A stretch of 64,000 nt of DNA, taken from the NCBI GenBank assembly GCA_020724585.1, contig DYGS01000001.1:422002-486001 (forward strand), in the 5' to 3' direction. The notes below the pieces were generated by a model that saw only the letters and a program-made list of their open reading frames with translations, was not told the origin of the DNA and did not search any database. The position numbers and the translations under genes were made by a program. Of the stretch, positions 11,900-59,588 are shown in pieces (the first letter of the stretch is position 1; each line of letters opens with the position of its first letter). This stretch comes from Candidatus Microgenomatus sp. (GTDB lineage: Bacteria; Patescibacteriota; Microgenomatia; UBA8517).

Positions 11900-12619
11900 T
11901 CATTTAAAATTTATTACTAAAGTTTCGAGTCTTCTGAGCGGCTCTTTAGTTGGCTGAAACATCTTAAGCAGTTTTTGTTTAGTTTTAAACATTTCATTGC
12001 CTATTTTGTGATATATTGAAAAAAGTTTGATAATGTAGGCATGCGATACAACAACTACTGCTTGGTTTTTGTGGTTCTTTAAGATTTTACCTGTTAACCT
12101 TTCAAAGCGTTTTTTTATTTCTTTATTTTTGTCGATTAATTTGTCTTGGAAAAAGTTGTTTATGAATCTTACTCTCAAAACTTTAAATTTATTATCTCCT
12201 AAACTATTGAATTCTCGCTCTGTAATTAAATTTTTTAGATTAAACCTAAGCGGTAAAAGATTTTTTGATACCACCATTTTCAAACCCAATTCTTGTGCAA
12301 TTACTTTAGCAGTTTCATTTGTCTGATGGCTTGGAGCTGAAAATATGACAGAGGGTTGGTATTTTTTTAGTGCCTTCGTGATCTTTAAAACTTCTTTCTT
12401 GGCATTCTTGACTAAATGGGGAAAGCGTTCTCCACTTGCGGCTTTTTCTATGCTTTTGTAAAGCGAGTGACCAGGAAGCGTATAACTAATTTCTCCGCTA
12501 GTCATAAATATTATTTTTGTCATACTATCCCTTAGGCAATGTTGAGATATCCAGTTCGATAAGTGGTAATTTATCGAGGTAATTTCCACTTGCAAGTTGT
12601 CTGGGATCATTTGGTTCAC
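11900..12619 (-). CDS. histidine phosphatase (phosphoglycerate mutase-like) family protein, degenerate RHG motif
   Basis: SAPSHQTNETAKVIA and VVVSHAYIIK resemble PGM-family motifs; likely start at the internal MTKIIF. Confidence 0.35.
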   Translation of the reverse strand: MNQMIPDNLQVEITSINYHLSNWISQHCLRDSMTKIIFMTSGEISYTLPGHSLYKSIEKAASGERFPHLVKNAKKEVLKITKALKKYQPSVIFSAPSHQTNETAKVIAQELGLKMVVSKNLLPLRFNLKNLITEREFNSLGDNKFKVLRVRFINNFFQDKLIDKNKEIKKRFERLTGKILKNHKNQAVVVVSHAYIIKLFSIYHKIGNEMFKTKQKLLKMFQPTKEPLRRLETLVINFK

Positions 12620-13460
12620 GAGTGATTCTGTCGTTCATCCAAGAAAAATTTGGTGTCCTATGGTTTGCCACGACCAATCTTTTTCCAAATTTTTCTCTCA
12701 TTAAGGATGCAAATGCCATATATTGTGCCTTTTGTCTGGCGATATGTCTAATGCCTTCGTCTCTTGTGACTGAACCCAAAAGTTTTTCTATCAATATCTT
12801 CCTCTCCCTGTAGTCAAGGTCAAGACCCCTAGCTATCCTGCCTTGGGGTTCGTTTTGGGCTTCATGTGTTAATCTATTCAGAAAATGATTGTAACGGTTG
12901 TACCAGATATCGAAGCCAAAATAATTTAAAAATCTTGCTGCAGCAGGAGTATCTCGGTATATATCTTTACCATAATTATCCACTACTTTTTGTGCAATCA
13001 AATTAACGCTTTCTTGAGACCTCCTTGTGAATTCATTGGGAGATATATTTAATTTTTTTAGGAATGGCAAAAGATCAAGTTCTGTATCTGCCATAAGAAA
13101 AAAATGAATTATTGGAACGCCAGTTATCATTAGGTCTTTTACCGCAGGAACTAAGTGATCAAAATGCCTCTGAATATTTGGTGATATTCCCGTTTCTAAA
13201 TCTTCATAGGTTGGTACACCATCAGCGTCCGCGCTATATGACGGGCAGACAGTGGAAACTAAAACCAAGGGCAAATCCTCCCTTATTGAATAGGCAACCG
13301 CCTCTTTGAGTAGAGTGTCTGGATAGTTTTTAGATACCTTGGGTAAGGGTAGGGAATCAAGAAAGTGTTTTGTAACTTCATTTAACCGACGGTTATCAAA
13401 CCCTCTTTTTAACAGAAGGTTTTGTCTGTTTCCTAAGAACTTTTCATTTTCTCTTATCAT
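12525..13460 (-). CDS. hypothetical protein (311 aa)
   Basis: Long ORF with no recognised motif. Confidence 0.45.
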   Translation of the reverse strand: MIRENEKFLGNRQNLLLKRGFDNRRLNEVTKHFLDSLPLPKVSKNYPDTLLKEAVAYSIREDLPLVLVSTVCPSYSADADGVPTYEDLETGISPNIQRHFDHLVPAVKDLMITGVPIIHFFLMADTELDLLPFLKKLNISPNEFTRRSQESVNLIAQKVVDNYGKDIYRDTPAAARFLNYFGFDIWYNRYNHFLNRLTHEAQNEPQGRIARGLDLDYRERKILIEKLLGSVTRDEGIRHIARQKAQYMAFASLMREKFGKRLVVANHRTPNFSWMNDRITREPNDPRQLASGNYLDKLPLIELDISTLPKG

Positions 13461-13732
13461 TTTTATACAAAAACCTCGCCTTCACTCCGAAATACTCGGA
13501 ACAAGGGCAAGGTTTCTCGCTGTGCCACCTTGATCTTTACTAAATAATTACTTATTTAGTATCTGTAACCAACTTCGCCTAAGGCGACATTGGCCTAAAG
13601 TTTGATAACGATCTTTTTCCGGACTCGCTACTTTCCCTTGAAGGGATGATTCACGAGTCAGCTTCGATGAGTTCATTCCCTCATCTCAATCGCTTTTAAT
13701 TATTGGTATTTTATAGGCAATACAGTTAGTTG
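13461..13732 (-). ncRNA. structured GC-richer intergenic leader (candidate cis-regulatory RNA) upstream of 12525..13460
   Basis: 272 nt noncoding at about 45% GC with several imperfect hairpins (GGGATGATTCA...TGAGTTCATTCCC); class not recognised. Confidence 0.25.
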
Positions 13733-14194
13733 TCAAGGAATTGGGTTAACATTCTCAAAGTAGGTTGTAAAACTGGCGATTAATTCTGTATTGGTTGTTG
13801 TACAAAAAACCAAGCCTTGTCCAAAAAATAAATGTTTTTTGTCAACAAGTATCATTCTTCTGTATTTTTCCACATCGAGGCTATGAAGGAAAACATAATT
13901 CGGTAACGAAATGTCTAATCTTAATTTCATAGCTTCAAAGTCATCCTTGGATCCAAAACCCAACTTATAAAATTTAACTCCGTTGTTGAGCTTCTGCCTG
14001 ACAAGTTCATGATACTCTTTAGATAAAGGTTTCTGTAATTCTTCTTTTAAGTCCATTGTCGCTAAAATTTGCATCTCAGAATTCCGAATAGATTCCATAA
14101 CAAAGTATTGTATTTCCTCGCGTGGAATGATAACTACTTCAGTGTTTTTCGAGGGGTCCTCCGGGTATATTGGTTCTTTAAATTCTTTGGACAT
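13733..14194 (-). CDS. hypothetical protein (153 aa)
   Basis: ORF only. Confidence 0.4.
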   Translation of the reverse strand: MSKEFKEPIYPEDPSKNTEVVIIPREEIQYFVMESIRNSEMQILATMDLKEELQKPLSKEYHELVRQKLNNGVKFYKLGFGSKDDFEAMKLRLDISLPNYVFLHSLDVEKYRRMILVDKKHLFFGQGLVFCTTTNTELIASFTTYFENVNPIP

Positions 14195-14233: not shown

Positions 14234-14290
14234 AAGCCCCATTCTTAAAACATTTGGATTGTGATCCAAAAAAGAATGGGGCTTTTGTTT
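14234..14290. terminator. bidirectional rho-independent terminator (GAAGCCCCATTCTT ... AAGAATGGGGCTTTTGTTT) downstream of tRNA-Trp
   Basis: 13-bp stem with T-run on the plus strand and A-run upstream. Confidence 0.65.
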
Positions 14291-14291
14291 G

Positions 14292-14367
14292 TGGCAGGCG
14301 CGGCGAGATTTGAACTCGCAATTTCCGTTTTGGAGACGGACGGTTTGCCAGTTGCTCCTACGCGCCC
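14292..14367 (-). tRNA. tRNA-Trp (anticodon CCA), CCA encoded
   Basis: Anticodon stem-loop TCCGT-CTCCAAA-ACGGA, T-arm GCGAG-TTCAAAT-CTCGC, 3' ...CGCGCCT-G-CCA. Confidence 0.8.
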
Positions 14368-14448
14368 ACGCGACAAATTTTCAAATAACTCTAAAATTGC
14401 GCAAGTGCAAATTCGTTATTTGTAAATCTGTAAATACCCTATATTAAT

Positions 14449-14477
14449 TTGCTAAATCTAAGGCTGGGTGATATACT
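14449..14477 (+). promoter_or_regulatory. sigma70-like promoter (TTGCTA-17-TATACT), followed by a 130-nt leader with 11-bp long-range inverted repeat (14503-14513 pairs with 14569-14579)
   Basis: Motifs read in the sequence. Confidence 0.4.
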
Positions 14478-14609
14478 CCCACCAAGCACTTTTACATTCA
14501 AAGTTGGCAGCTTTTTGCCTTTGATAAGTCAGTACTTTAGCACATTTTTCTAAAATATCAAAGGTTGGAAGCTGCCAACAAAATCTGTTATCCTAAAAGG
14601 AGAAGAAGA

Positions 14610-15635
14610 ATGAACACAAAACGGGTTCTTACTGGTATGAGAACGACGGGTCAGTTGCATCTTGGGCACTATGTGGGCGCTCTGAAGCAATGGGTTGAAG
14701 TCCAAAACACAGGAGATTATGATTGCTATTTCCTGCTGGCGGACATCCAAGCTTTGACGACACACGCAGACCGTCCCGAGCTTTTGACCACATCTGTTCG
14801 TGATGTCGTTCTCGACTGGCTGGCTGTTGGACTTGATCCAACACGGCCAAACGTGCACTTCGTTCTTCAGAGCCAGGTATCCGAAAGGGCGGAACTTTCA
14901 ATTGCCCTCTCAATGATTGCCGGCTACAACGAAGTCACGCGAAATCCCACCCTGAAAGCGGAATTAAAAGATCTTGGCAAGGATGCCACGATTGGCTTCA
15001 TTGCCTATCCGGTGGACCAAGTTGCGGACATCTATATGGTGTCTCCAACTCCACCCGAATCTGGCGATAAGCTGTTGGTTCCGGTCGGGGAAGACCAAGT
15101 TCCTCACCTTGAGTACGCAAGGGTACTAGCACGCCGCTTCAATCAGAAGTACGGCAAAGTGTTTGTTCCCTGCGAAGCTCTGGTGGGCGAAGTTGGAAGA
15201 CTTGTGGGAACTGATGGTCAGGCAAAAATGAGCAAAAGTAAGGGGAATACCATCAATCTTGCTGATGATGCTAAGACTGTCGAGTCCCAAGTCATGAAGA
15301 TGTTCACTGACCCTAAGCGTATCCGTGCAGATATGCCGGGGGATACCGTGAACAATCCGGTGTTCATCTATCACCGCGCTTTCAATCCTGACAAAGACGA
15401 AGTTGCAGATCTTGCCGAAAGGTACAAGAAGGGCAGAGTCGGAGATGTGGAAGTAAAAAGTCGTCTGGCAGCCGTCTTAAACAACTTCCTCGATCCGATC
15501 CGTGAGCGCAGGGCAAAATTTGAGCGCGAAGATCTACGCGAACTTCTTGTCAAAGGGACAAAGGCCGCAAAAGAGGCTTGTGTTCCCGTCATGCAATCTG
15601 TTCGCGAAAAGATGCATCTCGTCTATCCTCAATAA
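14610..15635 (+). CDS. trpS: tryptophanyl-tRNA synthetase, GC-rich copy
   Basis: HIGH motif (GQLHLGHY) and KMSKS; RBS AAGGAG; about 50% GC. Confidence 0.85.
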   Translation: MNTKRVLTGMRTTGQLHLGHYVGALKQWVEVQNTGDYDCYFLLADIQALTTHADRPELLTTSVRDVVLDWLAVGLDPTRPNVHFVLQSQVSERAELSIALSMIAGYNEVTRNPTLKAELKDLGKDATIGFIAYPVDQVADIYMVSPTPPESGDKLLVPVGEDQVPHLEYARVLARRFNQKYGKVFVPCEALVGEVGRLVGTDGQAKMSKSKGNTINLADDAKTVESQVMKMFTDPKRIRADMPGDTVNNPVFIYHRAFNPDKDEVADLAERYKKGRVGDVEVKSRLAAVLNNFLDPIRERRAKFEREDLRELLVKGTKAAKEACVPVMQSVREKMHLVYPQ

Positions 15636-15653
15636 ATTTGAAAAGGAGAAAAA

Positions 15654-16640
15654 ATGAAGACGAAACCTTTATGGCGCACAGCATTTTCGCTTGCGCTCCT
15701 CGCGGCAATCTTCTCCGCCGTCTACAAGGCAATGGACAACATCACGGTTCACAATTTCATTGTCGCAGATGACGGATTGACGCAAGCCTTTTCTTACCTG
15801 ATTGTGGGAGGATGGACCGGCGTTGTTTTCGGTCTGATTTTCTCTCTACTTTTGGGTAAGAAAATCATTGACGATGATTTCAACGGGCTTGTTTTCAAAA
15901 ACAGCACCATGCACTGGCAGGCCATAATCGCCGGCGCGATCTCTGCAGGAAGTACACTTTTCCTGCTCTGGGGAAACCAACTTGGCGACCCCAGCATGCT
16001 GATTGCGTTAGGAAGTGGAACCATCCTGTTCACGTCTCTCTACGACGTAGCAAGCAAGCAGGCAAGAACTAGTAATCTTGTCTATCCTGCGCTGCTTGTC
16101 TTGATTGGCAGTGGACTAGCCGCCTTTGGAGGATCACTTGCAGTAACCCTCACGGGAATTCTGTTTGTGGTTTTCCTCTCAAACGGCCTGAATGCTCTTT
16201 CTGAGATAGTGGAGCAAAAGGGTGTGAGGGCGAGCGATGGAGTAAACTTCTTCCTCTGGCGATTCTTTTGGCTGGCAACTACAGGAACTGTCTTGGCGAT
16301 TGTTGTATCGGGGCTGCGAGGTTATTTGGAAATGCTTTGGAGCACAGTAGCCTCTGCACTGAAATATATCCCGTTCATTGCCCTGACAATGTTCTTCGTT
16401 TTCCTGGGGATCGGCCTGAAGCTGGTTGCCAAGAAAGTCAGTGCCGTATCGATGGTGCTCATTGTTCTATCCGCCCAAATAATTCTGGGGTATCCGATCA
16501 CTTTGCTCGGAAACTGGGTTTTCCCCGGACTATTTGGAGAGATTCCTACCGAACTTTGGATCTGGGTAATCCGGCTGTTAGGTGCGATACTCATCATCTG
16601 GGCTATCCAACTCTTGCGAAAGCAGGATTCAAAGAAGTAG
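15654..16640 (+). CDS. polytopic membrane protein, DMT/EamA-like transporter (about 10 TM helices)
   Basis: Two 5-TM repeats, RBS AAAGGAG, GC-rich like trpS. Confidence 0.5.
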   Translation: MKTKPLWRTAFSLALLAAIFSAVYKAMDNITVHNFIVADDGLTQAFSYLIVGGWTGVVFGLIFSLLLGKKIIDDDFNGLVFKNSTMHWQAIIAGAISAGSTLFLLWGNQLGDPSMLIALGSGTILFTSLYDVASKQARTSNLVYPALLVLIGSGLAAFGGSLAVTLTGILFVVFLSNGLNALSEIVEQKGVRASDGVNFFLWRFFWLATTGTVLAIVVSGLRGYLEMLWSTVASALKYIPFIALTMFFVFLGIGLKLVAKKVSAVSMVLIVLSAQIILGYPITLLGNWVFPGLFGEIPTELWIWVIRLLGAILIIWAIQLLRKQDSKK

Positions 16641-16702
16641 CGAATACAAGTTTAAGGCGTGCCTTTCAATTTGGAGAAATCCGAAGCGAGAGGTACGCCT
16701 TT

Positions 16703-17467
16703 TTAGTTTCCAAATCCAGGCTTAAAACTTGGTATAATTCTCTCTACATCTTCCCGTAGTTTATCCTCTGGATTAACATAACCAGCTAGTACAACAGAAT
16801 CTCCTTCTCTCCAATTCATGCCCGACATGTCATCTATTGCAATTTCTTCAAATTGAATTTGATCTTCGTATAAACTCTTACCTCCTTCAAACGAGTTTAC
16901 ATACAGCCCCTTAATTACATTACCGACTTTCATAAATTTTGAACCCTCAAATTTGTTCGCTGCCATTCTAACTGATAAATCATAGTTAATACTTGCAACT
17001 TTATGTAAAAGCCCTCGCATTCTTTTGCTTTGGGTACAAAGAGCGATAGCTTCTTGCTTGGCTTCAAGCAGGTCTGTAGCTAGCAGATAATGTCCAAGGC
17101 CAGATCCTCTAAAGTTGGGGTGTGTAATAATGCCACTTAGATAGTAAAAGTCTAAATCCAGGGCTCGAACTTTTTTGGAAGCTATAAAAGCAGCCGGAAA
17201 ATTGTCCATTAACCTTCTGGCTACAATTAGCCTTTCTGCACCAATTATATGGTCATTTACATCTTTCACAAACAGCGGGTCTTCAAAGTTGCTCCTGAGA
17301 AAACCAATTCCGGTGAGAGGTCTAAATTCTTCGGCAATAGAAGCATACTCTTGAGGGACTAACTCACCACAAGTGTATCTTTTAATTTCGACGGACATTC
17401 CGTTAAAAGTTCTGATTTCACTTCTTGGATAAAGTATTCTTTCCATAATCCAATAAAAAAGCGCCAC
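16703..17467 (-). CDS. GNAT-like acetyltransferase domain protein (weak call)
   Basis: HPNFRGSGLGHYLL resembles GNAT motif A. Confidence 0.3.
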   Translation of the reverse strand: MALFYWIMERILYPRSEIRTFNGMSVEIKRYTCGELVPQEYASIAEEFRPLTGIGFLRSNFEDPLFVKDVNDHIIGAERLIVARRLMDNFPAAFIASKKVRALDLDFYYLSGIITHPNFRGSGLGHYLLATDLLEAKQEAIALCTQSKRMRGLLHKVASINYDLSVRMAANKFEGSKFMKVGNVIKGLYVNSFEGGKSLYEDQIQFEEIAIDDMSGMNWREGDSVVLAGYVNPEDKLREDVERIIPSFKPGFGN

Positions 17468-19080: not shown

Positions 19081-19123
19081 TCGTGGTCTTCGCTTCGCTC
19101 GACCTCGACAGATCGGTCATCGG

Positions 19124-19195
19124 AGCGGTGGAGCGGGCTTGAACCGCCGACCTCTTCCTTGGCAAGGAAGCATTCTACCACTGAACTACCACCGC
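19124..19195 (-). tRNA. tRNA-Gly (anticodon GCC)
   Basis: Acceptor GCGGTGG/CCACCGC, anticodon stem-loop CTTCC-TTGCCAA-GGAAG, T-arm GGCGG-TTCAAGC-CCGCT. Confidence 0.8.
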
Positions 19196-19250
19196 AAATT
19201 TCAAATATTCAGTGACCAAGCTTTGCTTACCACTGAACTACCACCGCAAA
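19176..19250. repeat. 23-bp direct repeat of the tRNA-Gly(GCC) 5' end plus 3-nt flank (19176-19198 and 19228-19250) around the spacer AGCAAAGCTTGGTCA...TATTTGAAATT
   Basis: Exact repeat; spacer shared with the tRNA-Leu(UAA) and tRNA-Leu(UAG) loci. Confidence 0.85.
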
Positions 19251-19396
19251 GATTTATTCGAGCAAATACGCAATCGCTCCCATGCTGTGCTGAGAGTTGG
19301 AGTTGCACCAACATCTGGGCTTCTTCAGAGCTCCGCCGTGACTACCTTGGCTATCTCAGCTAACTAAATGTATTATATCAAACTTATATATTTTTG

Positions 19397-19470
19397 TGGA
19401 TCCGGCAGGGATCGAACCTGCGGCCTTACGGATGTAAACCGTACGCTCTGACCAGCTGAGCTACGAATCC
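19397..19470 (-). tRNA. tRNA-Val (anticodon UAC)
   Basis: Acceptor GGATTCG/CGGATCC, anticodon stem-loop TACGG-TTTACAT-CCGTA. Confidence 0.8.
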
Positions 19471-19492
19471 ATATAACCTAACCTATAGTAAG

Positions 19493-19574
19493 TGCGCGGG
19501 ACTGGACTTGAACCAGCAAGGATTTCTCCATACGCACCTCAAGCGTACGCGTCTACCAATTTCGCCACCCGCGC
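19493..19574 (-). tRNA. tRNA-Leu (anticodon GAG), long variable arm
   Basis: Acceptor GCGCGGG/CCCGCGC, anticodon stem-loop TACGC-TTGAGGT-GCGTA. Confidence 0.8.
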
Positions 19575-33507: not shown

Positions 33508-33584
33508 GGATTCTTAGCTCAGTTGGCTAGAGCGCTTTCTTGACGTGAAAGAGGTCGCAGGTTCAAGTCCTGCAGGATCCACCA
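33508..33584 (+). tRNA. tRNA-Val (anticodon GAC), CCA encoded
   Basis: Acceptor GGATTCT, anticodon stem-loop CTTTC-TTGACGT-GAAAG, T-arm CAGGTTCAAGTCCTG. Confidence 0.85.
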
Positions 33585-33591
33585 GCTTTTC

Positions 33592-33664
33592 GGGCCCGTG
33601 GTATACCGGTAACATGCTTCCATGGCATGGAAGAGTAGCGGGTTCAATTCCCGCCGGGTCCACC
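33592..33664 (+). tRNA. tRNA-Ala (anticodon GGC), G3:U70 present
   Basis: Acceptor GGGCCCG/CGGGTCC with G3-U70, anticodon stem-loop CTTCC-ATGGCAT-GGAAG. Confidence 0.75.
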
Positions 33665-44690: not shown

Positions 44691-45854
44691 ATGGACTACA
44701 ATATTGATGAAGTATTAACAAGAAGAGTTACAAATGTAATCCCTGATAAGAATGCCCTAAAAAAACTTCTCGAATCGGGAAAAAAGCTTAATGTCTATTT
44801 TGGAATTGACCCAACAGCAACAAGAGTTCATATTGGCCATGCAGTAGCCATCCGAAAGCTTCAAGAGTTTGTCGATCTTGGCCATAATGTTACATTTTTA
44901 ATAGGCGATGCAACAGCTTTAATCGGCGATACCTCAGATAAAGATTCCGAGCGCCCGGTTTTAACAGCAGAGGAAATCAAAAATAACTTTAAAACTTACA
45001 AAAAACAAGCAAGCAAAATCCTCGATTTCTCAAAAGTTAAAATTAAATTTAACAGTAAGTGGCTGTCAAAACTAAGTTTTATAGACACAATAAAACTTGC
45101 CCAAAATTTTTCCTTTGGTGATTTTGCCAATAGAGAACTTATTAAAAAGAGACTTAATGATAAAAAGAAGGTTGGGCTTCATGAAGCTTTATATCCTGCA
45201 ATGCAGGCCTATGACAGTTATATTTTAGATACAGATATCCAAATAGGCGGCGCTGATCAAACATTTAATATGCAGGCAGGTAGACAACTTATAAAATCAA
45301 GGCTTAATAAAGAGTCATATATTGTTGTTACTCCTTATTTAACGGGCACCGATGGACGAAAAATGAGTAAAAGTTGGGGAAATGCAATTTGGTTAACCGA
45401 TAGCGCTGAAGAAATATTTGGCAAAGTAATGTCTCTTCCTGATGATCTTATCGTTGAATATTTTGAAAACGCAACCAAATTGGATCAAAAGACCATTGAT
45501 AATGCCAAAAAGGCCCTTAAAAACGGTGTTAACCCCATGCTTCTTAAAAAAGACCTGGCTTTCCAGATTGCTCTTGAATTTGCAGGCAAAAAAGCGGCAA
45601 ACAAGGCAAGAGTAAATTTTGAAAAAACTTTTTCAAAAAAAATGCCGGAGTTTAGCAGTCAAATCAAGTTAAAATCCTCTCTCCTTGAAACAGTTGCTCC
45701 TCATACAAAATTAAAATCACTTTCCGATGCAAAAAGATTGATAAGCCAAGGTGCAGTTCAAATAAATGGCGATATTGTAAGAGATATAAATTACAAAATT
45801 AAAAAAGGCGACAAAATAAAAATCGGAAAGAAAATATTTGGCAAATTAGTATGA
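44691..45854 (+). CDS. tyrS: tyrosyl-tRNA synthetase
   Basis: HIGH motif (TRVHIGHAV), KMSKS; C-terminal S4-like domain. Confidence 0.85.
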   Translation: MDYNIDEVLTRRVTNVIPDKNALKKLLESGKKLNVYFGIDPTATRVHIGHAVAIRKLQEFVDLGHNVTFLIGDATALIGDTSDKDSERPVLTAEEIKNNFKTYKKQASKILDFSKVKIKFNSKWLSKLSFIDTIKLAQNFSFGDFANRELIKKRLNDKKKVGLHEALYPAMQAYDSYILDTDIQIGGADQTFNMQAGRQLIKSRLNKESYIVVTPYLTGTDGRKMSKSWGNAIWLTDSAEEIFGKVMSLPDDLIVEYFENATKLDQKTIDNAKKALKNGVNPMLLKKDLAFQIALEFAGKKAANKARVNFEKTFSKKMPEFSSQIKLKSSLLETVAPHTKLKSLSDAKRLISQGAVQINGDIVRDINYKIKKGDKIKIGKKIFGKLV

Positions 45855-57860: not shown

Positions 57861-59588
57861 ATGAGAAAAACCATTTTGACACTCGTCTTTCTGTTTTTAA
57901 TTATTGTAGTTGGTGCTCTTGTGCCAAAATCTGTCTTTGCTCAACAATACTGCCCAGATGAAAATGCCTGTTTATGTCAACAAATTGGTTACCCAGCCTG
58001 TTGTGAGATTGAAGGTCCAGGGGGATATAACTGTGGTGGGGGTGGTGGGGGAGAACAGTGTGAATGTGGGGTGAATGCGCAGGGGAATTGTAAGCCTTGT
58101 GGTGGGTTTCAATGTCCAACCCCTGTAAATTGTAGTCCTGCGGAAAGGGTGATGACTTATGACATAACCAACATTGATGAGGATTGGAACCCGCGTTGTC
58201 CTGTTGGAACAAGTCAAAGCTATCAATGCACGGATTATGGAACAGATGAAGATGGTAACGAGGTTTGCACTGACGGGAGAGCCATTACTTATGGCTGTTG
58301 CCCAACGGGGACGCAATACCAGTGTCAGGTTGTTGATACGGGCAATAATTACACGATCTATAATTCCTGCCGCAATCCGACAAGATGTTCTGAAGATATT
58401 GATGTCTATCTTTATCATTACGAGGCTCCCAATACTGTTGCAAACAGATGCTATAGCGGGGAAAACGAATCGGGATTTTACTGGGTCTATAATGTGTACA
58501 CCGTCTGTAGGGATTATCAAAGGGTCTGCAACTGCGTGGCAACATGCAATGCCCAGGCTCCTTCAACCCCAATTCTAACAAGCCCCGTTGACGGCGCCAG
58601 CCTGTCAACCACTCCCGTCTCCTTGAATTGGAATGCCGTCTCATCCTGGGGCTTGGCTTGTGCAAACCAGGTAAACAGTTACTCCGTTTATGTGGGGACG
58701 ACCAATCCTCCCATTCCCTATACCAATGTGGGGACGGCAACAAATTACAGTTTTTCAGGCGCTCTCGGAAACACCTACTACTGGTTTGTAAGAGCAAGCA
58801 ACGGTCAGCTTTATACCGATAGTGAGGTAAGAAGTTTTACCATAACCCAGGGTCCCTGGTGGCAGGTCAAAGACGGCGATGTGACGGCAAACGGCGCATT
58901 GGGATCAGATGTACCTGACGGCTCTGTCTTTGCAGATAACGGAGCAGGGGGCTACCCCGGTCTTCCTGTTTATAGCGATTCGTTTAACCTTTCATCAAAT
59001 CCCGCCAAAATTTCAACAACCGGCTGGCAGGCGAATAGCTTAAGCTTTGTCCAAAGACTTTTTAACTTTGACTATTTTGCTAACTTAATTCCTCAAAGTA
59101 TTGTTGTAAACCCTATTGGGGATTTGGCAGGTGGCGGCGTTTCCGATGAAAATGGATATGAATGGTATCGGGTCAACGGCAACTTGGATATCGCATCAAG
59201 CATCAATTTTGGAAACCGTAAGGTTATCGTATTTGTCGAAAACGGCAGTTTGAATTTGGCTGGAAACATCAACTTAAACGACGGAGTTGGCTTTGCGGGA
59301 TTTTTTGTTGAAGGAGGAATAAATATTGATCCCAACATGGCTCAAGTTGCAGGTCCCGAGCTTGAAGGGGTGTATTTAACAAGCGGGCTATTTTCAACCG
59401 GCGCAGGGGATAGCCAGCTTCATATCAGGGGTTCCGTTGCCTCCTATGGAGGTTTTTCCTTGCAAAGAGATTTGATAAACGATTCAGCCGCTCCGGCAGA
59501 ATTGTTTGAATACGGACCGGATCAAATTTTGCTCTTTCCCAACAAGCTTGCCTTTAGACAAAGCAGATGGGTTGAAGTAGCTCCGTGA
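57861..59588 (+). CDS. secreted Cys-rich protein with FN3-like middle domain, GC-rich
   Basis: Signal peptide; about 40 Cys in the first 230 aa (CPDENACLCQQ...CGGGGGGEQCECG); FN3-like TPVSLNWNAV...YYWFVRASNG; GC about 48%. Confidence 0.55.
   Translation: MRKTILTLVFLFLIIVVGALVPKSVFAQQYCPDENACLCQQIGYPACCEIEGPGGYNCGGGGGGEQCECGVNAQGNCKPCGGFQCPTPVNCSPAERVMTYDITNIDEDWNPRCPVGTSQSYQCTDYGTDEDGNEVCTDGRAITYGCCPTGTQYQCQVVDTGNNYTIYNSCRNPTRCSEDIDVYLYHYEAPNTVANRCYSGENESGFYWVYNVYTVCRDYQRVCNCVATCNAQAPSTPILTSPVDGASLSTTPVSLNWNAVSSWGLACANQVNSYSVYVGTTNPPIPYTNVGTATNYSFSGALGNTYYWFVRASNGQLYTDSEVRSFTITQGPWWQVKDGDVTANGALGSDVPDGSVFADNGAGGYPGLPVYSDSFNLSSNPAKISTTGWQANSLSFVQRLFNFDYFANLIPQSIVVNPIGDLAGGGVSDENGYEWYRVNGNLDIASSINFGNRKVIVFVENGSLNLAGNINLNDGVGFAGFFVEGGINIDPNMAQVAGPELEGVYLTSGLFSTGAGDSQLHIRGSVASYGGFSLQRDLINDSAAPAELFEYGPDQILLFPNKLAFRQSRWVEVAP

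Follow-up and report, generated by a model that had tools for sequence, protein, structure and literature searches.

YddG is an exporter of aromatic amino acids with the drug/metabolite transporter (DMT) fold, and ycbK of Bacillus subtilis is a member of the TRAP tryptophan regulon (PMC13170310). TrpRS1 of Streptomyces coelicolor is described as an auxiliary or inhibitor-resistant tryptophanyl-tRNA synthetase (TrpRS) (Kitabatake 2002, as cited in PMC7916415). T-box leaders combine a T-box bulge, an antiterminator/terminator and a specifier, and we used this anatomy for comparison (PMC7583486). Parts of these systems are brought together at the locus studied here, a gene pair consisting of trpS, encoding TrpRS, and a downstream membrane-protein gene, next to a tRNA-Trp gene in Candidatus Microgenomatus sp., a member of the candidate phyla radiation (CPR). 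We analyzed the 64,000 nucleotides surrounding this pair, hereafter referred to as the window (assembly GCA_020724585.1, contig DYGS01000001.1, positions 422,002 to 486,001 of the forward strand). Bacteria of the CPR group are generally held to depend on external amino acids and are usually regarded as tryptophan auxotrophs.

The membrane protein resembles YddG (5i20) and other EamA-type DMT transporters in its 10-helix fold (TM-score approximately 0.55-0.6), with weak EamA matches in distant family members, and it resembles ycbK in belonging to a tryptophan-related gene set. Unlike these two, its family has no Pfam or NCBIfam model, is only 12-16% identical to solved DMT structures, comprises 178 clusters and is coupled to trpS and tRNA-Trp; in addition, some members carry cytosolic RAM or PLD-like domains. 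The window TrpRS falls on the same TrpRS sub-branch as TrpRS II of Deinococcus radiodurans (PDB 1yi8, 2a4m) and shares an anomalous composition within the host genome with the auxiliary copies S. coelicolor TrpRS1 and D. radiodurans TrpRS II. However, it is typical of Microgenomates and lies beside tRNA-Trp, and neither a second copy nor an antibiotic cluster is present in the 64 kb. A neighboring operon has a leader that agrees with the T-boxes of Firmicutes and the short-Stem-I T-boxes of Actinobacteria in its bulge, antiterminator/terminator and codon-bearing Stem I loop; as in Firmicutes, the regulated genes cluster with the cognate synthetase. Leaders of this type differ from known T-boxes in their hosts (CPR bacteria), their Rfam scores (40-50 bits versus a gathering score of 93) and their Stem I (6-7 bp with an 8-nt loop). 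The genes behind them are not canonical trp genes (TrpD-like of approximately 490 aa, BtpA and GNAT, or p311 and a phosphatase), and trpS of the window, in contrast to the Firmicutes regulons, uses a different leader.

We favor, with moderate confidence, the reading that the locus is a conserved module for tryptophan supply in CPR (Microgenomates) bacteria, in which a housekeeping trpS is transcribed together with a gene that probably encodes a tryptophan transporter. The grounds are the gene identities, the fold of the transporter, its conserved linkage, gene fusions, base composition and leader conservation. In this module, trpS and the DMT-fold transporter would be driven together from their own promoter through a structured leader. 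The transporter, as judged from context only, would carry tryptophan or a close indole or aromatic precursor. Inward transport appears most plausible, and more economical, in a genome of approximately 0.7 Mb from a group held to depend on amino acids from outside; this direction is likewise suggested by context only. Across the divergent tRNA-Trp gene, the adjacent T-box operon (p311 and a histidine phosphatase) would respond to uncharged tRNA-Trp. The PLD-like protein p153 would be the separate counterpart of a cytosolic tail that is fused to the cyanobacterial transporter, and a GNAT-like gene would close the module.

The trpS-transporter operon

The operon and the adjacent tRNA gene contain the following features.

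14234-14284, no strand assigned: terminator hairpin of tRNA-Trp between an A-run and a T-run (folding energy -24.8 kcal/mol, z -5.4)
14292-14367, minus strand: tRNA-Trp, anticodon CCA, discriminator G, CCA end encoded (ARAGORN; Rfam tRNA, 48.9 bits; alignment with the other loci)
14449-14477, plus strand: promoter-like site of trpS, TTGCTA, 17-nt spacer, TATACT, extended -10 TG (consensus scan)
14503-14579, plus strand: long leader hairpin of trpS between the promoter and the ribosome-binding site (folding, conservation)
14610-15635, plus strand: trpS, TrpRS of the Deinococcus TrpRS II/Thermotoga/6ncr type (PF00579, TIGR00233)
15654-16640, plus strand: 10-helix transporter with the DMT fold, placed for co-transcription with trpS (AlphaFold 2 (AF2) model, Foldseek)
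16654-16701, plus strand: terminator closing the trpS-transporter operon, with UUUUU after the hairpin (folding energy -31.8 kcal/mol, z -6.1)

The trpS product matched PF00579 (E = 4.6e-58) and TIGR00233 (251 bits; cutoff 176.75), and its translation contains HLGH and KMSKS, the two signature motifs of a class Ib TrpRS that a first-pass annotation of the bare sequence had recognized. The nearest solved structures were 6ncr and the D. radiodurans TrpRS II, Thermotoga and Thermus enzymes (190-273 bits; 257 bits for D. radiodurans TrpRS II), whereas the Bacillus/Escherichia coli type was much further away (approximately 110-140 bits). The sub-branch of the window enzyme and D. radiodurans TrpRS II also holds 6ncr and the enzymes of Thermotoga (2g36) and Thermus (2el7), which we take to be sole-copy enzymes. 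The closest sequences came from Woesebacteria, Blackburnbacteria, Cerribacteria and other Microgenomates (60-90% identity). Phylogenetic placement, which had been proposed as a way of identifying a donor lineage, thus grouped the TrpRS with the host's own Microgenomates and not with a foreign donor. No other TrpRS was found in the window, in which the only further gene of the PF00579 family is a TyrRS-like open reading frame (ORF) at 44691-45854. Most likely, trpS encodes the lineage's own type of TrpRS and a working enzyme, and it is probably the only TrpRS gene of the genome.

Two side observations concern related TrpRS genes. On CPR contig L022 (9061-10725; L numbers denote fetched loci and P numbers proteins), TrpRS has no transporter partner, and its convergent neighbor carries PF27054 (Beta_methylindole_red_C), an indole-related annotation. 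The taxonomic labels of L018 and L019 (metagenome-assembled genomes in ENA, labeled Gammaproteobacteria) and of P0011 (Anaerolineales) look wrong, as their TrpRS sequences are 72-79% identical to that of the window; the L018 cluster includes a Blackburnbacteria protein, and the L018 transporter appears frameshifted.

The membrane protein was modeled with AF2 from 46 homologues (pLDDT 86.5, pTM 0.85), yielding ten long helices. Its 37 best Foldseek matches in the Protein Data Bank were all DMT proteins, aligned over the full length (TM-score 0.50-0.65), and included, at TM-scores of 0.55-0.65, the triose-phosphate translocator (TPT), nucleotide-sugar transporters, LicB, SLC35B1, YddG and PfCRT. 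Membership in the DMT superfamily is supported by the fold with its ten transmembrane helices. The first-pass description of a DMT-type 10-helix transporter was confirmed at this level and by no sequence model; searches against Pfam (E up to 10) and NCBIfam returned no match, including EamA (PF00892). Comparison of the N-half and C-half profiles with hhalign gave a probability of only 0.2% for a 5+5 helix duplication, indicating that the internal duplication is seen through the fold only.

A family profile search of 1.84 billion representative proteins recovered only the 178 clusters mentioned above. The family is thus a small separate branch, and its profile has no direct reach to the very large EamA family. 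In distant members (approximately 410-425 aa), the C terminus is an Lrp/AsnC 'RAM' ligand-binding domain, and EamA is matched weakly, for example by P0280 (28.3 bits versus a cutoff of 28.2). Some cyanobacterial transporters (469 aa) carry a C-terminal PLD-like domain homologous to the window ORF at 13733-14194. Such cytosolic small-molecule sensor tails would fit a substrate-regulated metabolite transporter and would fit a drug pump less well. The invariant residues, polar D28, N29, D40, R203 and R307 and aromatic Y48, W54, F76 and W202, would be compatible with a zwitterionic aromatic substrate. No relatives of the transporter were found on IMG/VR viral contigs or PLSDB plasmids.

The sequences around the two genes support an operon with its own signals. 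The tRNA-Trp gene lies 242 bp upstream of trpS on the opposite strand and, as first proposed, has its own bidirectional terminator, the hairpin at 14234-14284, an equivalent of which is also present in L046. Both trpS and the membrane gene are preceded by AAAGGAG, in agreement with the AAGGAG ribosome-binding sites noted previously, and the spacer between the two genes is 18 nt. The promoter-like site is kept in L005, L038 and L046. The inverted repeat GTTGGCAGCT (14504-14513) and AGCTGCCAAC (14570-14579) forms the base of the long leader hairpin; the 173-nt leader folds with a z-score of -3.9 and outperforms 199 of 200 shuffled sequences. Four distinct lineages (window, L046, L005 and L038) share the hairpin, in which several pairs show compensatory changes on both sides, such as the replacement of U-A by C-G at pair three of the outer stem. 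The promoter and the leader with its inverted repeat were thus confirmed, whereas the possible attenuator proposed with them was not established, because the hairpin is followed by no U-tract, indicating that it is not an intrinsic terminator, and no Rfam family matched the leader at E ≤ 1. No leader peptide with Trp codons was seen in the trpS leader. As it is also not a T-box, we dropped the label of classical attenuator. The hairpin could be a protein-binding or stabilizing element, as judged from the four sequences compared.

Linkage of the transporter to TrpRS and tRNA-Trp across genomes

We fetched approximately 30 independent loci or contigs to survey the linkage of these genes. The transporter gene lies directly 3' of the TrpRS gene in nearly all of them. 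It follows or faces TrpRS in the window and in L005, L007, L009, L011, L013, L015, L017, L018, L020, L021, L023-L025, L027-L029, L031-L039 and L041-L046. The exceptions to the usual arrangement are L043, in which the two genes converge, L014, in which TrpRS is a broken remnant, and L019, in which the transporter stands alone beside assembly gaps. At least 12 lineages have their tRNA-Trp gene no more than a few hundred bp from trpS; in a 3.6-Mb genome (L007), it lies 38 bp upstream of trpS on the same strand. Alignment of the loci showed that the tRNA-Trp sequences differ between lineages and are lineage-specific, indicating that the tRNA is a resident partner rather than a recent passenger or an integration scar. 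We therefore rejected tRNA-Trp as a part of a recently moved cassette. The proposal that the gene pair had been inserted next to tRNA-Trp also became doubtful, as the order of tRNA-Trp, trpS and transporter is conserved across deep branches.

The transporter is paired with three types of TrpRS: the CPR (window) type, a cyanobacterial paralogue and the L026 type. The cyanobacterial paralogue (Microcoleus, Phormidium, Floridaenema and Desertifilum) has 478 aa, 30% identity and a 150-residue N-terminal extension, and L026 also contains a chorismate-mutase fusion gene. In neighbor-joining trees, the transporters of the cyanobacteria and of L007 branch from within the CPR transporters, but the window-type CPR TrpRS clade does not include their TrpRS partners. 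The pairing thus holds across non-orthologous TrpRS partners, indicating a functional link and not merely an inherited gene order.

Two of these contexts contain further genes. In filamentous cyanobacteria, the TrpRS paralogue and the DMT transporter, with or without the PLD-like domain, are clustered with an M14 carboxypeptidase and a glutamine-amidotransferase/C26-like gene (L009 7809-13098, L023 6565-12741, L024 6565-12413; also L031, L033 and L034). A STAND NTPase or its VMAP-M9 helix-turn-helix domain adjoins this cluster in L009, L023 and L024. In the 3.6-Mb genome, which has a GC content of 39%, the tRNA-Trp/TrpS/transporter unit (L007/L008 5282-11008) has native composition and adjoins a 1093-aa RelA_SpoT-TGS-ATPase fusion; a transposase lies nearby in the L007 assembly only.

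The T-box operon and other neighboring genes

On the other side of tRNA-Trp and beyond the transporter, the window contains the following features.

11900-12523, minus strand: histidine-phosphatase-family gene, 207 aa, second in the T-box operon (JGI gene call; PF00300, E = 3e-10)
12525-13460, minus strand: p311, 311 aa, leading gene of the T-box operon (unmatched in Pfam and NCBIfam)
13500-13699, minus strand: T-box-like leader in which Stem I is very short and the T-box bulge reads GGUGGC, with a terminator (RF00230)
13733-14194, minus strand: p153, PLD-like fold lacking the HKD catalytic residues (AF2, Foldseek, homology to the fused cyanobacterial domain)
16703-17467, minus strand: GNAT-like gene, 254 aa, convergent with the operon (PF00583, E = 3.5e-4)

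The window leader matched RF00230 with 42.8 bits, below the gathering score, and with an E value of 2.5e-8 over 401 nt; the score is low because 75 positions of the Stem I model are replaced by 11 nt. In the bulge AAGGUGGCACAGCG, UGGC matches the GCCA end of the adjacent tRNA-Trp, and a U-run terminator follows. T-box leaders adjoin the cassette in the window, L017, L021, L028, L039, L043, L044 and L046, all with the cut-down Stem I hairpin and the low scores given above. Their bulge reads UGGC in most cases, complementary to the G-CCA end common to these tRNA-Trp, and UGGU in L021. In the relatives, the Stem I loop is GAA-UGG-purine, placing a tryptophan codon at the specifier position; the near-identical leaders of L021, L028 and L046 read GGAAUGGA, with UGG, and that of L017 reads AGAAUGGG (L046 9330-9510, L021 4914-5140, L028 1360-1560). 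The specifier of the window leader, GGAAUGAA, is UGA, and the same A is found in four independent assemblies of the organism. The only tRNA-Trp seen has the anticodon CCA, and the window ORFs read normally with UGA as a stop. No papers on T-boxes in CPR or Patescibacteria were found in the literature searched.

The window leader is nearly identical to that of L046 in Stem I and the adjoining helix, yet the genes downstream are not homologous. In L046, L021, L028, L017, L039 and L044, the leaders precede a TrpD-like protein of approximately 490 aa and a BtpA-family protein, whose genes are in some cases separated by a GNAT gene. The TrpD-like protein matches PF00591 and, below the cutoff, TIGR01245 (45 bits), a distant relation to TrpD; its gene lies at L046 7802-9271, L021 3397-4884 and L011 11046-12551. 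We considered whether p311 is a diverged TrpD-like protein and rejected this, as it is not homologous to the TrpD-like gene at the same position in L046. Homologues of p311 lie beside the cassette in L005 (24% identity) and L043 (27%), the latter also behind a T-box. The histidine-phosphatase gene, which comes after p311 in the window and L005, has a syntenic homologue in L005. The p311/phosphatase and TrpD-like/BtpA pairs may represent non-homologous replacement within one regulon. To our knowledge, neither pair has a known role in tryptophan metabolism.

Residues 338-455 of the cyanobacterial transporter P0160 are 34% identical to p153 (E = 1e-19). Its AF2 model (pLDDT 76.5) matched NucT, Zucchini and the sensor domains of TrmB/TrmBL2 in Foldseek (TM-score 0.55-0.66). 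Invariant Y111-x-R113-x4-D118 stands in place of H-x-K-x4-D, indicating that p153 is more likely a binding domain than an enzyme. A homologue search of a 5.8-billion-protein set returned only p153 itself; its relatives were recovered instead among the fused cyanobacterial proteins and by tblastn against the fetched loci. Homologues of the GNAT-like gene lie beside the cassette in L005 (41%), L025 (62%), L046 and L017 (28%, co-directional), and a GNAT gene is also present in L044. Equating the 254-aa window protein with the 239-aa gene of Microcoleus was rejected, as direct comparison was not significant and L017 provided only a weak bridge.

Base composition and competing explanations

The window has a GC content of 35.8%. 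By comparison, trpS has 50.1% (0.63 at first codon positions (GC1) and 0.51 at third codon positions (GC3)) and the membrane ORF has 49.1% (GC3 0.56), whereas the 57 remaining window ORFs have a mean GC of 0.348 ± 0.040 and a mean GC3 of 0.277 ± 0.062. The GC3 z-scores relative to these ORFs were approximately +3.7 for trpS and +4.6 for the membrane ORF. In a 300-nt sliding profile, GC rose at the start codon of trpS and dropped at the stop codon of the membrane gene. The proportion of arginine, R/(R+K), was 0.5 in window-type CPR TrpRS, compared with 0.19-0.43 in the other window genes examined. These measurements support the first-pass statement that two genes of about 50% GC lie in an AT-rich context, and the comparison with surrounding genes that it had recommended, which we ran within the window, marked both as outliers, the other genes having far lower GC. 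The housekeeping genes in the window are BipA, a class II synthetase, PheT, a class A penicillin-binding protein (PBP), RecG and DinB, and its 64 kb contain 16 tRNA genes with several small clusters (including 594-937, 19122-19574 and 33508-33664). Two more ORFs are GC-rich, 6407-6868 (GC3 0.49) and 57861-59588 (GC3 0.43), both without a Pfam match; a small ORF at approximately 6962-7207, just past the first of these, is annotated by JGI as PF25186 Tad4. The contig of the window runs past the end of the 644-kb JGI contig, indicating that the two belong to different assemblies of one organism.

The GC excess is present in relatives of the window cassette and thus characterizes this cassette lineage in several AT-rich hosts.

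L046 (TrpRS 90% identical to that of the window): cassette GC3 0.36, flank GC3 0.12-0.26
L025 (TrpRS 89%, transporter 88%): cassette GC3 0.34-0.36, flank GC3 0.19-0.23
L005 (TrpRS 80%, transporter 73%): cassette GC3 0.62-0.69, flank GC3 approximately 0.32
L011, L018, L019 and L035 (other contexts): cassette GC3 0.47-0.69, flank GC3 approximately 0.26-0.46

As the excess is common to all close relatives at the same locus, it does not reflect a recent insertion, and the data exclude recent insertion of a foreign gene pair into this genome. Comparison of the locus in relatives gave a divided answer: L046, L025 and L005 share both the context and the GC excess, yet the core genes have much lower GC. 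Of the claim of horizontal acquisition, an older or recurrent process shared with relatives is plausible, as is a foreign origin at some depth, whereas recent acquisition by this genome did not hold. Synonymous sites are at or near saturation (proportion of synonymous differences (pS) 0.63-0.75 even between the window and L025, and up to 0.86 in the clade). A single transfer before the lineages split should therefore be largely erased, yet the offset persists in every member, which weakened our candidate of a single ancestral transfer followed by simple amelioration.

One competing explanation, which we consider unlikely, is that no horizontal transfer occurred. The cassette would then have been inherited vertically, and its high GC would be an intrinsic, maintained property that arises from a conserved GC-rich amino-acid composition together with bias in codons or recombination. 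Consistent with this, GC1 is approximately 0.58-0.66 in CPR copies of the window TrpRS type whatever the GC of the host (approximately 0.51 in L044 and L045), and part of the GC excess is indeed amino-acid composition. Furthermore, inside the window's clade the trees of TrpRS and of the transporter are congruent and match the flank synteny, and GC3 exceeds that of the flanks by 0.15-0.35 in every clade member despite the saturated synonymous sites, which resembles an equilibrium rather than a relic. However, there is no known mechanism that doubles the GC3 of two ordinary genes relative to the genome, and the deeper-branching copies (L021, L044, L045, L007 and cyanobacteria) have host-like composition. 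In addition, the cassette proteins of the window and L005 (80% and 73% identity) are more alike than all other genes shared by the two (24-68%; TyrRS 42%, RecG 55%, RNase III 64%, PBP 68%, flanking genes 24-41%), and the transporter clearly crossed phyla. 

Because the transporter has demonstrably crossed phyla, lateral exchange of the cassette among CPR lineages is most likely what the GC excess reflects. Three candidate causes can be named. Alleles of the cassette may have been exchanged repeatedly between CPR lineages, some of them richer in GC; an old transfer may have ameliorated unusually slowly; or a bias specific to these genes, such as GC-biased repair after frequent recombination, may be maintained.

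A second explanation, which we regard as improbable, is that the transporter exports tryptophan or a toxic aromatic by-product, serving as a safety valve or in cross-feeding of the host, and is co-expressed with trpS to balance the pool. The structural matches include YddG (5i20), an aromatic amino-acid exporter (PMC13170310), a RAM or PLD-like sensor domain on the cytosolic side would fit a transporter that is activated when its substrate is in excess, and prototrophic cyanobacteria carry the transporter. However, it is hard to see why an organism with a genome of approximately 0.7 Mb should export the costliest amino acid, the neighboring operons would be switched on by uncharged tRNA-Trp, that is, by starvation, and the transporter is coupled to a tryptophan-consuming enzyme.

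The first-pass annotation had interpreted the locus as a resistance or self-resistance module, in which a horizontally acquired, inhibitor-insensitive TrpRS is combined with an efflux pump for a tryptophan mimic such as indolmycin or chuangxinmycin. Self-protection through additional synthetase copies has been documented (PMC7916415), both genes are compositional outliers, and DMT proteins include the exporters YddG and PfCRT. Moreover, the cassette looks accessory in the 3.6-Mb genome and in cyanobacteria, where it lies near STAND NTPases and transposases. The TrpRS is on the Deinococcus TrpRS II-like branch and has Q in ADIQALT, at the position that we take to be the indolmycin-contacting H43 of Bacillus stearothermophilus TrpRS; we regard this residue as a lead and not as evidence, and the same Q is common to the aligned Deinococcus TrpRS II. 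This interpretation is nevertheless very doubtful, as the TrpRS shows no foreign origin but groups with the host's own lineage, the relatives share the locus, with TrpD-like and BtpA genes in that place, no biosynthetic genes lie nearby (the neighbors being the T-box operon, the PLD-like protein, tRNA-Trp and the GNAT-like gene), and searches of PLSDB plasmids and IMG/VR viral contigs did not recover the cassette. Linkage to tRNA-Trp and Trp T-box operons in many lineages and fusion of family members to amino-acid-sensing domains, observed across the approximately 30 contigs, indicate tryptophan supply under a starvation-related regulatory context, not drug efflux.

Several points also weigh against the tryptophan-supply module. 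DMT proteins include both importers and exporters, and YddG, the aromatic transporter of this fold that is known best, works outward. Tryptophan importers of Firmicutes are often preceded by a T-box, but the transporter gene of the cassette is not. Cyanobacteria keep the transporter although they make their own tryptophan, and its surroundings there, comprising a second TrpRS, an M14 peptidase, a STAND NTPase and a glutamine amidotransferase-like gene, look more like specialized metabolism or conflict. Finally, the persistence of the GC3 offset despite synonymous saturation is poorly explained by transfer followed by amelioration.

A broader proposal, which we put forward tentatively and hold to be improbable as it stands, is that CPR bacteria possess a compact, undescribed system for tryptophan salvage and uptake consisting of the DMT transporter, tRNA-Trp, trpS, a T-box-controlled enzyme pair and the GNAT-like protein, which is exchanged as a cassette. 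The enzyme pair may be interchangeable, either the TrpD-like phosphoribosyltransferase with the BtpA TIM-barrel protein or p311 with the histidine phosphatase, and the RAM or PLD-like sensor domains on some transporters may also be parts of the system. If this were true, the GC signature would be a trace of the cassette's lateral movement, and the T-box specifier mutated to UGA in the window would be a natural test of specifier tolerance.

For the tryptophan-supply module, the transporter represents an uncharacterized DMT subfamily predicted to carry tryptophan. A membrane family that matched no Pfam or NCBIfam model in our searches would thereby gain a testable function, the transport of tryptophan or an indole compound; this prediction draws on an unusually consistent linkage in CPR bacteria, cyanobacteria and at least one other lineage. 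The locus also calls for caution in the calling of genomic islands, as a sharp GC island at an aminoacyl-tRNA synthetase is, taken alone, evidence of neither a resistance gene nor a recent insertion. The part most worth following is the set of T-box-controlled genes around the cassette; these Trp-T-box-controlled genes (TrpD-like, BtpA, p311 and GNAT) could reveal how ultra-small, host-dependent bacteria obtain scarce tryptophan.

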